Shown here piece by piece: positions 6,803 through 10,331 of a stretch of 32,000 nt of DNA. Origin of the DNA: Candidatus Harpocratesius repetitus (GTDB lineage: Archaea; Asgardarchaeota; Lokiarchaeia; Sigyniarchaeales; Promethearchaeaceae); NCBI GenBank assembly GCA_021498095.1, contig JAIZWK010000001.1, forward strand, positions 1,860,001 to 1,892,000, in the 5' to 3' direction. Every line of letters begins with the position of its first letter. Positions within the stretch are counted from its first letter, which is position 1. Below the pieces are notes generated by a model that was not told the origin of the DNA, ran no database searches, and saw nothing but the letters and a program-made list of their open reading frames with translations. The position numbers and the translations under genes are program-made.

Positions 6803-7483
6803 ATGTACTATAAAATTCCTTCAACACTTCGAGAACAATTAGCTCAACCTATTGGTCACCATTTTATTGGTAACCTTGAGCAGACTGATGAACTAATAGA
6901 CAAATGGATCGCTCAACAAATATCAAAACATACTCTTTCGTCCACCTCTATCTCAGTTCCATTATCTAATTCAAATTTTTCTTCAACTCAAAATTTTAAT
7001 AGTTATTCCAAATATCAACAAGATCTGATTAAAAACCGACCTTCTTTCCCTATCATTTCATGTGTTGGAGATGTTGTTAGTAAAACTTTTATTGAAAAAG
7101 AGTATTTACGACCTTATCTTAAATATTGCTTTATTGATGGAGGTACACAACGAGGGAAAAAAATTGATATTACTCACTATCCAAATTTTAAACAACGTAA
7201 ATTTCATAATCCGGCAGGTTGTATAAATGATGAAATCATTGATTTTATCAAGAAAACACGAGATGATCTTCACCAATATATCGTATGGATTGATGGAGAA
7301 GAAGATCTACTGGTTATTCCACTTATTTTAAAAATAAATCATGGTTTGGTTTTTTATGGACAACCTCCGCTTACCGATCTTGATCCTCAAATTCCTGCTG
7401 GATGTGTTGGGATTCGAATAACCCCCCAAATCCAAAATAAAATCGAGATTTTATTCAATCAATTTATTCTCATCTCAGAGTGA
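6803..7483 (+). CDS. DUF359 family, GTP-dependent dephospho-CoA kinase
   Basis: LREQLAQPIG, CVGDVVS, IDGGTQR, NPAGCI, IDGEEDLLVIP, VFYGQP...GCV motifs; canonical position between spt4 and rps24e. Contains a Ser/Asn-rich insertion. Confidence 0.9.
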   Translation: MYYKIPSTLREQLAQPIGHHFIGNLEQTDELIDKWIAQQISKHTLSSTSISVPLSNSNFSSTQNFNSYSKYQQDLIKNRPSFPIISCVGDVVSKTFIEKEYLRPYLKYCFIDGGTQRGKKIDITHYPNFKQRKFHNPAGCINDEIIDFIKKTRDDLHQYIVWIDGEEDLLVIPLILKINHGLVFYGQPPLTDLDPQIPAGCVGIRITPQIQNKIEILFNQFILISE

Positions 7484-7537: not shown

Positions 7538-7598
7538 TGAGCTGAAAACGAAGGTCACTTACGGTATTACCGTGGGCCACCAGATTCAGTTTAGGTGA
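7538..7598 (+). promoter_or_regulatory. Kink-turn hairpin in the rps24e leader, abutting the SD (AGGTGA 7593-7598)
   Basis: C-stem GCUGAA(7541-46)/UUCAGU(7585-90), 3-nt bulge AAC, tandem G50.A84 and A51.G83, A.A, then G-C, G-C, U-A; apical stem ACGGU/ACCGU. Confidence 0.6.
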
Positions 7599-7603
7599 AA
7601 AAT

Positions 7604-7951
7604 TTGGTAGATATAAACGTTTTAAATAAAAAAGCAAATCCTCTTCTCCATCGTACTGAGATTGAGTTTGAGATTGAGCATTTAGGCTCTGGATCTCCAA
7701 ATCGATTGGAAGTTCGGGAGAAGTTGGCAGCAATGATGACTGCAAAAAGCGAATTGACTTTTATTCGCAGCATGAAACCGCGATTTGGCATACCGCAAGT
7801 TCATGGAATGGCACACATTTATGATGATGAAGCCACTGCTGAAAAAATTGAACCTACATACATCAAGATCCGTAATATGGAAAAAGAAAAACGGAATGAT
7901 GCATGGAAAGCTGAAAAAGCCAAAAAGAAGAAAAAGAAAAAGAAAAAATAA
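7604..7951 (+). CDS. rps24e: 30S ribosomal protein eS24 (S24e)
   Basis: NPLLHRTEIEFEIEHLGSGSPNR..VREKLAA...FG...G.AHIYD. TTG 7604 after the AGGTGA SD is preferred to the track's GTG 7595. Poly-Lys C-terminus. Confidence 0.97.
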   Translation: MVDINVLNKKANPLLHRTEIEFEIEHLGSGSPNRLEVREKLAAMMTAKSELTFIRSMKPRFGIPQVHGMAHIYDDEATAEKIEPTYIKIRNMEKEKRNDAWKAEKAKKKKKKKKK

Positions 7952-7968
7952 TCAGGTGAAAAATTAAA

Positions 7969-8421
7969 ATGAGCATAAATAAAGTAGAAGGCTTACAAAA
8001 AATTTACACAACTGGTTCAATGACAACATATCGTGTACAGAAAGCAGCCAAAATTGCGGATTTATTAAAAGATTTGCATTTAGAAAGTAAATATTTTGTT
8101 ATTTTAGTTGAGGGTAAAAAAGCATCCCCAAATTCATTCATTGACAAAAATGCAGAAATAACCATTCTTCCTAAAATTGCTGGAGGTGGACGAGGTCGTC
8201 GAAATGTTAAAACAAAAGAAAAACGACAAAAACCACCACGCAATAAAAATAAAGGTCCGATGTGGTCTGTTGAGAATGGAAAAGTTGTTCGTAATCGTAA
8301 AAGTTGTCCTAAATGCGGACCTGGGGTCTTTATGGCTGATCATTATGACCGTCAAAGTTGTGGAAAATGCGGATATACACAATTTAAACGGATAAATCGT
8401 AAAATTCCCTCTAAAAAATAA
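7969..8421 (+). CDS. rps27ae: Ubiquitin-like (SAMP/MoaD/ThiS beta-grasp) domain fused to 30S ribosomal protein eS31 (S27ae)
   Basis: aa1-73 end [21 protein letters not shown]....[16 protein letters not shown] (Ubl, codons to 8187). aa74-150 contain a basic extension and [25 protein letters not shown] (S27ae zinc finger). AGGTGA SD at 7954-7959. Confidence 0.93.
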
Positions 8422-8492: not shown

Positions 8493-10331
8493 ATGCCACA
8501 ACCATTTCTTTGCTTGGGAATTGAATCCACCGCACATACATTCAGCGTAGGAATTGTAAATGATAAAGGTAATGTATTAGGACTTTCTTCAGATACATAC
8601 ATTCCTCCAAAAGGTGGATTAAAACCGACTGACGTGGTAGAGCATCATTATAATGTATTTGAGAAGCAACTTAAACAAGCTTTACAACAAGCTCAAGTTG
8701 ATTTAAAAGATATTCAATTAATTGCATTCAGCCAAGGACCCGGATTGGGACCATGTTTGAGAGTTGGAGCTGCAGTTGCTCGAACTTTGGCATTAAAATT
8801 AAAAATTCCACTAGTAGGTGTAAACCACTGTATTGCACATGTGGAAATTGGACGGGTGGCATGTAATTGCGATGATCCTCTTACAGTATATGTTTCTGGA
8901 GGAAATACAATTATCAGTGCCTTTGAATCAAATAGATATCAAATATTTGGAGAAACAATAGATATATCAATTGGCAATTTACTTGATATGGTTGCGAGAG
9001 ATCTTGGTATTCCCCATCCTGGTGGTCCAAAGATGGAGCAAATTGCTCTTAAAGGAAAAAATTTCATCAAAATTCCATATATCGTAAAAGGTATGGATCT
9101 TTCATTCTCAGGATTATATTCTTATTGTCGGAAAATGCTTCATGATAATGGATTACTTAAAGAATCAATAACAAAAAAAGCAGTTCAATCCCAGAAAAAG
9201 GTTATTTGTAAAGAAGATTTAGTATACTCTCTTCAAGAAACTGCATTTTCCATGATTGGAGAAGTATGTGAACGTGCTATTGCTCATACTCATAAAAAAT
9301 CTGTTCTACTTACAGGTGGAGTAGCCGCAAATCGACGACTTCAAAAAATCATTGCAGACATATGTGAACATCAGCAAGTTGATTTTAACGTAGTTCCAAG
9401 ACGATTGGCTGGTGATAACGGGGCTATGATTGCTTGGACTGGATTTTTACAATATCAAAACAGCGGAGAAACTTCTATTGAAAATTCTGAAATAATTCCA
9501 AAATGGCGTATGGACGATGTTCCAATTTCGTGGAGAGCTGTTCAAATATCTAAATCAAAATTTAGAGAAATAAGCAATACTTCAAGTTTTAGTGTTAGTT
9601 CTAATCCCCAAATTCAAAATTTATTTTCTCATTTTTTAAGGTCAACCAATGTTGATGGAAAGACGGGAATTTTAAGTAATTTCCTCCAAAATTTTGAAGT
9701 AATTGGGCACGGTGCTGAAGCAGTTTTAGTTCGAATCAATTGGTTTGATAAACCTGCACTTTTAAAATATAGAATTAAAAAATCTTATCGTATTTCAGCA
9801 ATAGATTTACCCTTGCGAATTCATCGAACTATTACTGAAGGACGACTCCTAATTTCTTTGTATCAAGCAGGGATTCCAGTACCTTTAGTTTATGATATAA
9901 TACCAAATGAAGCTGCTTTGATTATGGAATTTATTGAAGGGAATCGATTAAAAGATAAAATTCCAGAATTACCTACTCAAAAAATTCAACAGTATTCTTA
10001 TTTAATTGGAGAATATTTAGCTTTAATGCATAATCTAGAAATTGGCCATGGCGATTTAACCACCTCAAATGTAATCTTAAAGCCTAACCACCAGTTAATT
10101 TTACTTGATTTCGGATTAAGTGTTCCTGATGTTGGAATTGAAGAAAAAGCTATGGATATTCATTTATTTCAGCGCGTAATTAAAAGTTCTCATGGAGATT
10201 ATTTTGATTTAATGGTTCCTGCATTTTTGGATGGTTACAAGCATCAAATTGCTGGTAATTATGAAGAAATTATGGAGCGGGTGGAAAAAATATCCTTACG
10301 TGGGAGATACATCTCTAAATCACTTCGATAA
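8493..10331 (+). CDS. kae1: Bifunctional KEOPS Kae1 (TsaD)-Bud32 fusion, t6A tRNA modification
   Basis: LGIESTAHT, FSQGPGLGPCL, VNHCIAHVEIG, VYVSGGNT, GGVAAN, DNGAMIA (Kae1); GAEA, HGDLTTSN, LLDFGL, E.KAMD.HL (Bud32 kinase). Confidence 0.97.
   Translation: MPQPFLCLGIESTAHTFSVGIVNDKGNVLGLSSDTYIPPKGGLKPTDVVEHHYNVFEKQLKQALQQAQVDLKDIQLIAFSQGPGLGPCLRVGAAVARTLALKLKIPLVGVNHCIAHVEIGRVACNCDDPLTVYVSGGNTIISAFESNRYQIFGETIDISIGNLLDMVARDLGIPHPGGPKMEQIALKGKNFIKIPYIVKGMDLSFSGLYSYCRKMLHDNGLLKESITKKAVQSQKKVICKEDLVYSLQETAFSMIGEVCERAIAHTHKKSVLLTGGVAANRRLQKIIADICEHQQVDFNVVPRRLAGDNGAMIAWTGFLQYQNSGETSIENSEIIPKWRMDDVPISWRAVQISKSKFREISNTSSFSVSSNPQIQNLFSHFLRSTNVDGKTGILSNFLQNFEVIGHGAEAVLVRINWFDKPALLKYRIKKSYRISAIDLPLRIHRTITEGRLLISLYQAGIPVPLVYDIIPNEAALIMEFIEGNRLKDKIPELPTQKIQQYSYLIGEYLALMHNLEIGHGDLTTSNVILKPNHQLILLDFGLSVPDVGIEEKAMDIHLFQRVIKSSHGDYFDLMVPAFLDGYKHQIAGNYEEIMERVEKISLRGRYISKSLR

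Follow-up and report, generated by a model that had tools for sequence, protein, structure and literature searches.

A predicted ThiS/SAMP2-type ubiquitin-like domain fused in frame to ribosomal protein eS31 in a small group of Lokiarchaeia

Described precursors and the Lokiarchaeial eS31 gene

The fusion of ubiquitin to eS31 and eL40, two proteins of the ribosome, is almost universal in eukaryotes. The gene described here belongs to the archaeon Candidatus Harpocratesius repetitus and lies in a stretch of 32,000 nucleotides (contig JAIZWK010000001.1, positions 1,860,001 to 1,892,000), referred to as the window, where positions 7969..8421 of the forward strand encode a ubiquitin-like (Ubl) domain, a basic linker and the zinc ribbon of eS31 (S27ae) in a single frame. 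The fusion is genuine and conserved among a few Lokiarchaeial (Promethearchaeota) lineages. It is the first archaeal precursor of a Ubl and a ribosomal protein that was found, and its Ubl is of the SAMP2/ThiS type. As such it contradicts a 2021 review, according to which archaea make neither eS31 nor eL40 with a Ubl at the N-terminus (PMC8122580); the same review framed the question of why these two proteins carry ubiquitin as one of 'chance or necessity' (PMC8122580).

The closest described system is the eukaryotic ubiquitin-eS31 precursor (yeast UBI3, human RPS27A/UBA80). Both arrangements comprise an N-terminal modifier (of beta-grasp fold by prediction in the archaeal case), a GG, a basic eS31 extension and the same zinc ribbon, both have a small residue (G or A) after the GG, and both are single polypeptides, so that modifier and ribosomal protein are made 1:1. 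They differ in the modifier, which here belongs to the ThiS/SAMP2 family and has no detectable sequence similarity to ubiquitin; in the expected protease, a JAMM metalloprotease here and cysteine deubiquitinases in eukaryotes; and in distribution, a few lineages of one archaeal family as opposed to a whole domain of life. Cleavage of the archaeal form is a prediction. The eukaryotic type of junction was read in the metagenomic protein P0018 (...RGG/GKKRKKK, the slash standing after the GG). This protein carries PF00240 and PF01599 on a contig of 686 bp and was rejected as an archaeal fusion, being an ordinary eukaryotic ubiquitin-S27a.

Three other kinds of precursor are comparable. In the FUBI-eS30 protein of animals (FAU) a non-ubiquitin Ubl with a C-terminal GG also precedes a protein of the small subunit, and two publications state that FUBI is removed from eS30 before or during assembly (PMC8122580; PMC10611586). 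This system differs in that the ribosomal protein is another one, the Ubl is of the ubiquitin family, the organisms are eukaryotes and the processing enzyme is USP36. The archaeal SAMP and ubiquitin precursors (CsSAMP with CsJAMM, CsUb with CsRpn11, and the JAMM1-SAMP2 pair of P. furiosus, 5LDA) contain the same Ubl family with extra residues after the GG; the known ones have short functionless tails or an artificial partner (GFP), whereas here the 'tail' is an essential ribosomal protein. Finally, a ThiS/MoaD-type Ubl is fused to a functional partner in Ubl-Cgi121 of Thaumarchaeota, Cgi121 being a KEOPS subunit, and in MoaD-MoaE (PMC2948915). There the Ubl is joined to an enzyme or complex subunit from its own pathway and not to a ribosomal protein. 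A study of MoaX of M. tuberculosis, judging by its title (PMC4326299), reportedly found cleavage of the fusion to be necessary for activity.

The survey of archaeal Ubls by Makarova and Koonin in 2010 includes the Ubl-Cgi121 and MoaD-MoaE fusions and no S27ae fusion (PMC2948915). The initial annotation of the window, made from the sequence by itself, had allowed that the fusion might already be documented. A search of the open full-text literature, which left subscription-only texts aside, gave no account of a Ubl-eS31 fusion in archaea; the texts covered were reviews on ubiquitin evolution and on ubiquitin and Ubls in ribosome biogenesis, the 2010 survey, and studies of Asgard ubiquitin and eukaryotic signature proteins (PMC11354881, PMC2948915, PMC8122580, PMC9192718, PMC12962969, PMC10307638).

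The fused gene and its two halves

The gene is one open reading frame (ORF) of 150 aa plus stop, as read from the window sequence, and begins 17 nt past the stop codon of rps24e. The initial annotation had taken it for a single ORF with its own Shine-Dalgarno (SD) signal, and this is what is found: an SD-like AGGTGA, read directly from the sequence at 7954..7959 (+), stands 9 nt before the ATG. Residues 1-73 (7969..8187, +) form the putative ThiS/SAMP2-family beta-grasp Ubl domain, to which the family profile, Pfam, an AlphaFold2 (AF2) model and the ratio of nonsynonymous to synonymous divergence (dN/dS) all contribute evidence. The domain ends in ILPKIAGG (residues 66-73), the GG being encoded at 8182-8187 (residues 72-73), and runs straight on into eS31 with its basic N-terminal extension. 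This segment, residues 74-97 (8188..8259, +), is predicted to be disordered, with a predicted local distance difference test (pLDDT) of 61-75, and would be the N-terminal extension of mature eS31 according to its alignment with unfused orthologues. Residues 98-150 (8260..8418, +) comprise the eS31/S27ae zinc ribbon, recognised by PF01599 and four cysteines, plus a short basic C-terminal tail.

The fused frame is present in 9 protein clusters from independent assemblies. A search of 5.8 billion proteins returned eight further fused forms of 137-179 aa that are 55-80% identical (JGI, ENA and Logan assemblies), and all fused forms collapse to about one 50%-identity cluster among 1.84 billion representatives. 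The frame runs without stops in 3 of the 3 genomes of genus g1, and the other ten genomes of the family contain the eS31 half only. Among 400 genomes of the phylum no match spanning both domains was identified outside g1 at E <= 1e-20, a survey that more diverged fusions and lineages not sampled could escape. A search for longer proteins bearing the Ubl, weak by design, returned the same fused forms only. A 41.7-kb contig of another strain, from an independent study, spans the locus and is about 96.6% identical, differing by 51 substitutions and lacking indels; the substitutions listed change five amino acids, all conservatively, and introduce no stop. In the fused Ubl domains pN is far below pS, dN/dS being 0.06-0.19 where dS is unsaturated, and both halves of the fusion are under purifying selection. 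The tail EITILP[KR]IAGG is invariant in 8 of 8 fused sequences even though the domains of the four fused groups are just 38-63% identical, a pattern shared with the free paralogues that can be activated. Its GG (residues 72-73) is thus invariant but internal, with a C-terminus that would be freed only upon cleavage. An assembly or sequencing artefact, or a private read-through mutation, against which the initial annotation had warned, has nothing in its favour and a negligible probability. The same frame occurs in the three g1 genomes, in five metagenome lineages of different samples and in the strain contig, selection acts on both halves, and the closed genome holds no other gene for eS31.

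On profile evidence the N-terminal domain is a ThiS/SAMP2-type Ubl and not ubiquitin. It belongs to a family of proteins of about 68 aa ending in (V/I)ILPKIAGG that is common among relatives of the window genome, and in which 50 of 51 members match Pfam ThiS (PF02597) and 39 of 51 match SAMP2 (PF21965). The best match of the family profile in the PDB is SAMP2 of P. furiosus (5lda_B, solved with JAMM1), at E 1.8e-5. The window genome contains two stand-alone paralogues, about 57% and 41% identical to the fused domain, and both pass the Pfam ThiS cut-off; the closer one (69 aa, 56-57% identity, E 8e-18) is alone in also passing the SAMP2 cut-off, with 35 bits for ThiS and 29.6 for SAMP2. No PF00240 (ubiquitin) match was identified in the fusion by Pfam, and the Ubl domain showed no similarity to P0018's ubiquitin part or to the PF00240 protein encoded in the same genome. 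The initial annotation's description of the domain as SAMP-like rather than ubiquitin agrees with the family profile, the paralogues and the missing PF00240 match. The AF2 model has a beta-beta-alpha-beta-beta-beta order, with block pLDDT of 94-98 over residues 11-70 when the full-length protein is modelled and of 88-94 when the domain is modelled by itself, and the Ubl is followed by a low-confidence linker (71-95; pLDDT 61-75) and then by the confident zinc ribbon.

Two sets of scores count against this family assignment. Taken by itself, the fused domain does not reach the curated Pfam cut-offs (ThiS 16.5-18.6 vs 22.5; SAMP2 16.9-19.1 vs 27), these weak matches covering residues 19-73. Structure searches with the isolated N-domain model placed beta-grasp proteins on top with scores within the chance range: MoaD 2q5w (prob 0.97), a TGS domain (prob 0.99), TtuB (Z 4.7), BubA (Z 4.8) and ThiS 3cwi (Z 3.9). 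Foldseek gave no PDB match to the N-domain at E <= 0.001 (E >= 0.07), and the best Z of the wide VIA-align search was 5.0. The family assignment therefore rests on the sequence profiles, as the structural scores lie in the chance range.

The two stand-alone paralogues have different neighbours, whose functions were judged by eye from the ORFs. The SAMP2-like one, at C1:1941039-1941248 (-), ends in AGGF and adjoins an RNase Z-like gene. The other, at C1:821832-822038 (+), ends in AGG and adjoins genes for an MBF1-like zinc-ribbon/HTH protein and an HflX-like GTPase. Four further ThiS-family ORFs were identified in the genome. Its own ubiquitin-family gene encodes an 83-aa PF00240 protein ending in AGGY (G000:C1:1085316-1085567, -; G000 is the window genome) and is located about 6 kb from the gene of an AfJAMM-like JAB protein of 234 aa (C1:1078751-1079455), and a UQ_con E2 is encoded at C1:220418-220846.

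The C-terminal half is an ordinary eS31, recognised by Pfam Ribosomal_S27 (PF01599), whose match to residues 100-137 scores 73.4 bits (cut-off 22.3). The zinc ribbon cysteines C113, C116, C131 and C134 (CxxC...CxxC) are invariant across the protein alignment, and the ribbon has a pLDDT >90 in the AF2 model. In phmmer searches this half matches archaeal S27ae chains of ribosome structures at E of about 4e-18 and eukaryotic eS31 chains at E 1e-9 to 1e-13, and Foldseek also matches chains of both domains of life. The fusion is the only eS31 gene of the closed, one-contig genome of 4.36 Mb, where the next PF01599 match has 14.5 bits (E 0.2). As there is no second gene, eS31 must come from the fusion ORF, and to this extent the earlier claim that it is obtainable only as a fusion product is confirmed by this family search. 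The single copy and its conserved place between rps24e and kae1 show this to be the organism's functional gene for eS31. The eL40 of the same genome is unfused, with an open frame of 58 aa.

Unfused orthologues from sister genera have 82-86 aa, are annotated 'Promethearchaeota archaeon 30S ribosomal protein S27ae' and translate the basic extension from a start codon of their own. Their N-terminus is M-ARGAKRKVKTKEK, and the fused forms continue after the GG with [GA]RG(A)[RK]R[NK]VKTKEK in perfect register. Residues 74-97 align residue for residue with the unfused N-termini, which begin MARGAKRKVKTKEK. Because the fused and unfused proteins align in register right after the GG, the junction is the natural N-terminus of the eS31 of this lineage. 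The extension also aligns with the N-terminal domain of eukaryotic eS31, from 4-10 residues after the ubiquitin GG (residue ~81 onward). It is found in the unfused orthologues P0010-P0012 as well, and is missing from the typical archaeal S27ae of solved ribosomes. Two high-GC relatives, G016 and G018 (L030 and L031; family f4), have an eS31 of 135-137 aa with Ala/Lys/Pro-rich N-terminal and Gly-rich C-terminal extensions. Their long N-terminal frames were rejected as Ubls, being low-complexity sequence of the said Ala/Lys/Pro-rich kind.

Predicted cleavage and its alternatives

The precursor is probably cut after G73 by a JAMM/MPN+ protease, yielding a GG-ended modifier or sulfur carrier and mature eS31, a proposal drawn from conservation, precedent and a docking model. 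The Zn-dependent protease would act between G73 and G74, during or after translation, and would release a Ubl of 73 aa with a free GG. E1-like ThiF/UbaA enzymes could then adenylate this Ubl for sulfur transfer and/or protein conjugation, and mature eS31, with its basic extension starting at G74, would join the 30S subunit. One Ubl would be made per eS31 (1:1). Before its release the Ubl may also act in cis to help the very basic eS31 fold or stay soluble, a role that ubiquitin has in yeast.

Precedents are available on both sides of the archaeal-eukaryotic divide. A JAMM protease of C. subterraneum cleaves SAMP precursors, CsRpn11 cuts both the ubiquitin precursor and a linear ubiquitin-GFP exactly after the GG, and no deubiquitinases other than JAMM are known in archaea (PMC6043591). 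In yeast, ubiquitin is a cis chaperone for eS31, its removal is required for normal function of the 40S subunit, and uncleaved ubiquitin-eS31 impairs translation initiation (PMC8122580).

The free Ubl paralogues end at the same AGG, 0-3 residues beyond it at most. In the window genome the SAMP2-like paralogue (AGGF) and the ubiquitin-family protein (AGGY) extend past the GG, and 28 of 53 representatives of the Ubl family carry 1 to ~60 residues after it, so that an activity trimming these residues must exist in the organism and its relatives. Six metagenomic relatives of the Ubl (P0024, P0040, P0062, P0072, P0075 and P0080) have unrelated tails of 20-65 residues after the GG, one of them coiled-coil-like and one transmembrane-helix-like. 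As read from their sequences, these are possible further precursors of the type 'Ubl-X'.

The initial annotation expected a JAB/MPN+ protease or another deubiquitinase, and the genome does encode the enzymes that would be called for: at least 5 JAB/MPN ORFs and, for the E1-like step, 5 ThiF-domain ORFs, three of which are MoeB/UbaA-sized. One candidate protease is P0085 (167 aa; G000:C1:1654715-1655218), with an intact E...HSH...S..D motif and similarity to CSN5, Rpn11, CsRpn11 and PfJAMM1. The other is the AfJAMM-like protein of 234 aa mentioned above, similar to AfJAMM at E 4e-13. Larger MPN proteins are encoded at C1:1736819 and C1:3825357. A further JAB (G000:C1:2402071-2402529) was set aside as a defence-system protease, since it is located beside an E2/E1-like ORF of 557 aa and nucleotidyltransferase-like genes. 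The whole locus (G000:C1:2402071-2408138), with its JAB of 152 aa, the 557-aa E2/E1-like protein and several nucleotidyltransferase-like ORFs, resembles a CBASS locus of the Cap2/Cap3 type.

The complex of P0085 with residues 1-90 of the fusion and Zn was predicted with a score of 0.87, the best control reaching 0.00; the mark applied to this score is reached by 58 of 80 solved complexes and by 2 of 110 mismatched pairs. At least 74% of the contacts recur between runs, and the partner has a pLDDT of 72 or more. In the model, residues 67-76 of the fusion are placed against the JAMM motif of P0085 (E28, H88, H90, S101 and D104).

Several points speak against the proposed cleavage. The docking result may indicate likeness to the known JAMM-Ubl binding mode and not binding of P0085 to the fusion as such: JAMM-Ubl complexes (e.g. 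5LDA) are already solved, and the pass may therefore reflect likeness or memory. Of the JAMM candidates, the prediction covered P0085 alone. No RNA run containing the locus was listed, the runs compared being DNA contigs. Finally, Giardia has a natural uncleaved ubiquitin-eS31 in which the GG is disrupted (PMC8122580; PMC11354881), and a permanent N-terminal Ubl on eS31 is for this reason not impossible.

The Giardia protein is a precedent for the alternative in which the fusion is never cleaved. The Ubl would then stay permanently at the N-terminus of eS31 on the small subunit and serve as a module for docking or regulation, not as a free modifier. With about 25 residues and a pLDDT of 61-75, the linker is predicted to be flexible and could accommodate such a tethered domain. 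This alternative is considered unlikely, though it deserves more weight than any other. The GG lost in Giardia is retained here, together with the rest of EITILP[KR]IAGG, in all fused lineages despite their 38-63% identity; the junction falls precisely where the free Ubl ends and the free eS31 begins; trimming after the GG is already needed by the genome for its GGF and GGY precursors; and in yeast an uncleaved ubiquitin-eS31 hampers the initiation of translation (PMC8122580). The docking model, for its part, would place the junction in the JAMM active site.

Separate production of eS31 by internal initiation is a further alternative, and a highly improbable one. The full-length product would in this case be a Ubl whose long C-terminal extension is trimmed off or thrown away. 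The initial annotation had stated that no in-frame start precedes the S27ae core, which does not hold as worded, as an in-frame ATG is present at residue 98 (M98, window position 8260), two residues ahead of the Pfam core, and many archaeal S27ae of about 50 aa begin at the equivalent position. What stands of the statement is that no ATG, GTG or TTG was found in frame between G73 and M98 on inspection of the window sequence, and the basic extension 74-97 consequently has no start codon of its own here. The ATG at 8260 is preceded only by a weak SD-like GGT, 3 nt upstream. The GPMW around it also lies inside unfused orthologues that start 25 residues earlier, with Ile in place of Met in one of them. 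Segment 74-97, moreover, is conserved as protein between the fused and the unfused forms, and hence appears to belong to functional eS31 in both. Cleavage after G73 is preferred over both of these alternatives.

Origin, significance and gene neighbourhood

The fusion would have arisen within one family of Lokiarchaeia, independently of eukaryotic ubiquitin-eS31. A stand-alone Ubl gene would have been copied in between rps24e and rps27ae, the Ubl losing its stop codon and eS31 its start codon. Convergence with the eukaryotic arrangement is the preferred reading. A local, convergent origin is indicated because only a few lineages of one family carry the fusion, because the closest relatives of the Ubl are stand-alone genes of the same genomes (57-60% identity), and because a separate ubiquitin-family gene and an E2 co-exist in the genome. 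The simplest form of this history is complicated by the concatenated tree of S24e, eS31 and Kae1, where the fused lineages occupy three places among unfused genera (3 changes). Their monophyly is not rejected on that tree (approximately unbiased test, p-AU 0.079). The phylogeny of the Ubl domain (68 columns) does not separate the possibilities, and monophyly of the fused Ubls is again not rejected (p-AU 0.51). With the fused lineages scattered and monophyly standing, the history may have been a single gain followed by losses or a series of gains.

The initial annotation had offered a convergent or an ancestral relation to the eukaryotic arrangement, and of these the convergent one is favoured. 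In the ancestral case the Ubl-eS31 would be a relic of an Asgard-stage ancestor, inherited by eukaryotes with the SAMP-type moiety later swapped for ubiquitin, and these Lokiarchaeial genes would be surviving relics of the RPS27A ancestor instead of a case of convergence. In favour of this, the ribosomal protein is the same, the junction has the same GG followed by a small residue and then basic ones, the phylum is the archaeal one closest to eukaryotes, and a basic N-terminal extension alignable with that of eukaryotes is already present in Lokiarchaeial eS31. The distribution is nevertheless narrow and patchy within one family, which makes an ancestral state very unlikely. Among the 13 family genomes the fusion is found in genus g1 only, the survey of 400 genomes of the phylum gave no two-domain match outside g1 (E <= 1e-20), and the fused forms amount to about one 50%-identity cluster of the 1.84 billion. 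The Ubl, besides, is closest to stand-alone paralogues of the same genomes (57-60%) and unrelated in sequence to ubiquitin.

Read as convergent, the locus is a natural replicate of the eukaryotic one: an unrelated modifier, predicted to have the beta-grasp fold, has joined the same ribosomal protein at the same place, apparently independently, and this in the archaeal phylum nearest to eukaryotes. The replicate speaks for a selective benefit in the fusion of a Ubl to eS31 as such. Candidate benefits are a cis chaperone for a very basic zinc-ribbon protein, or a supply of modifier coupled to ribosome output. The system is a simple one for testing such a benefit, as it comprises one Ubl, one ribosomal protein, a handful of JAMM proteases and sister genera without the fusion. 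If the predicted cleavage is true, an archaeal JAMM protease would here mature an essential ribosomal protein, and the precursor would be the first natural substrate of this kind.

The neighbourhood of the gene is shared by fused and unfused lineages. Upstream are a DUF359 gene (6803..7483, +; PF04019, E 4.7e-17), a conserved neighbour of rps24e found in the same order in L001 and L037, and rps24e itself (7595..7951, +; eS24, 118 aa; Pfam Ribosomal_S24e, E 2.5e-28), which is in the same place in fused and unfused relatives. Directly downstream of the Ubl-eS31 gene is a kae1-bud32 fusion gene (8493..10331, +; Pfam TsaD, E 5.7e-75, plus RIO1/Pkinase), which encodes Kae1 and Bud32 as a single polypeptide of 612 aa. 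All five fused metagenomic lineages that were fetched have the order DUF359 - rps24e - [Ubl-rps27ae] - kae1. The order rps24e-rps27ae-kae1 is identical in the unfused relatives, where rps27ae starts 4 nt after rps24e; in the fused lineages a Ubl coding unit lacking a stop codon stands between the two, and eS31 lacks its start codon. As the unfused relatives share this synteny, the adjacency of kae1 is uninformative about the Ubl, and the link to tRNA modification that the initial annotation had seen in kae1/bud32 is not supported.

Two minor observations concern eS24. Its poly-Lys C-terminus in the window is an unbroken run of nine lysines. In P0021, from an ENA metagenome contig of 596 bp, an ORF of 126 aa unites an S24e domain with an S27ae zinc ribbon in a single frame, and may be another fusion of neighbouring ribosomal genes or a frameshift artefact.

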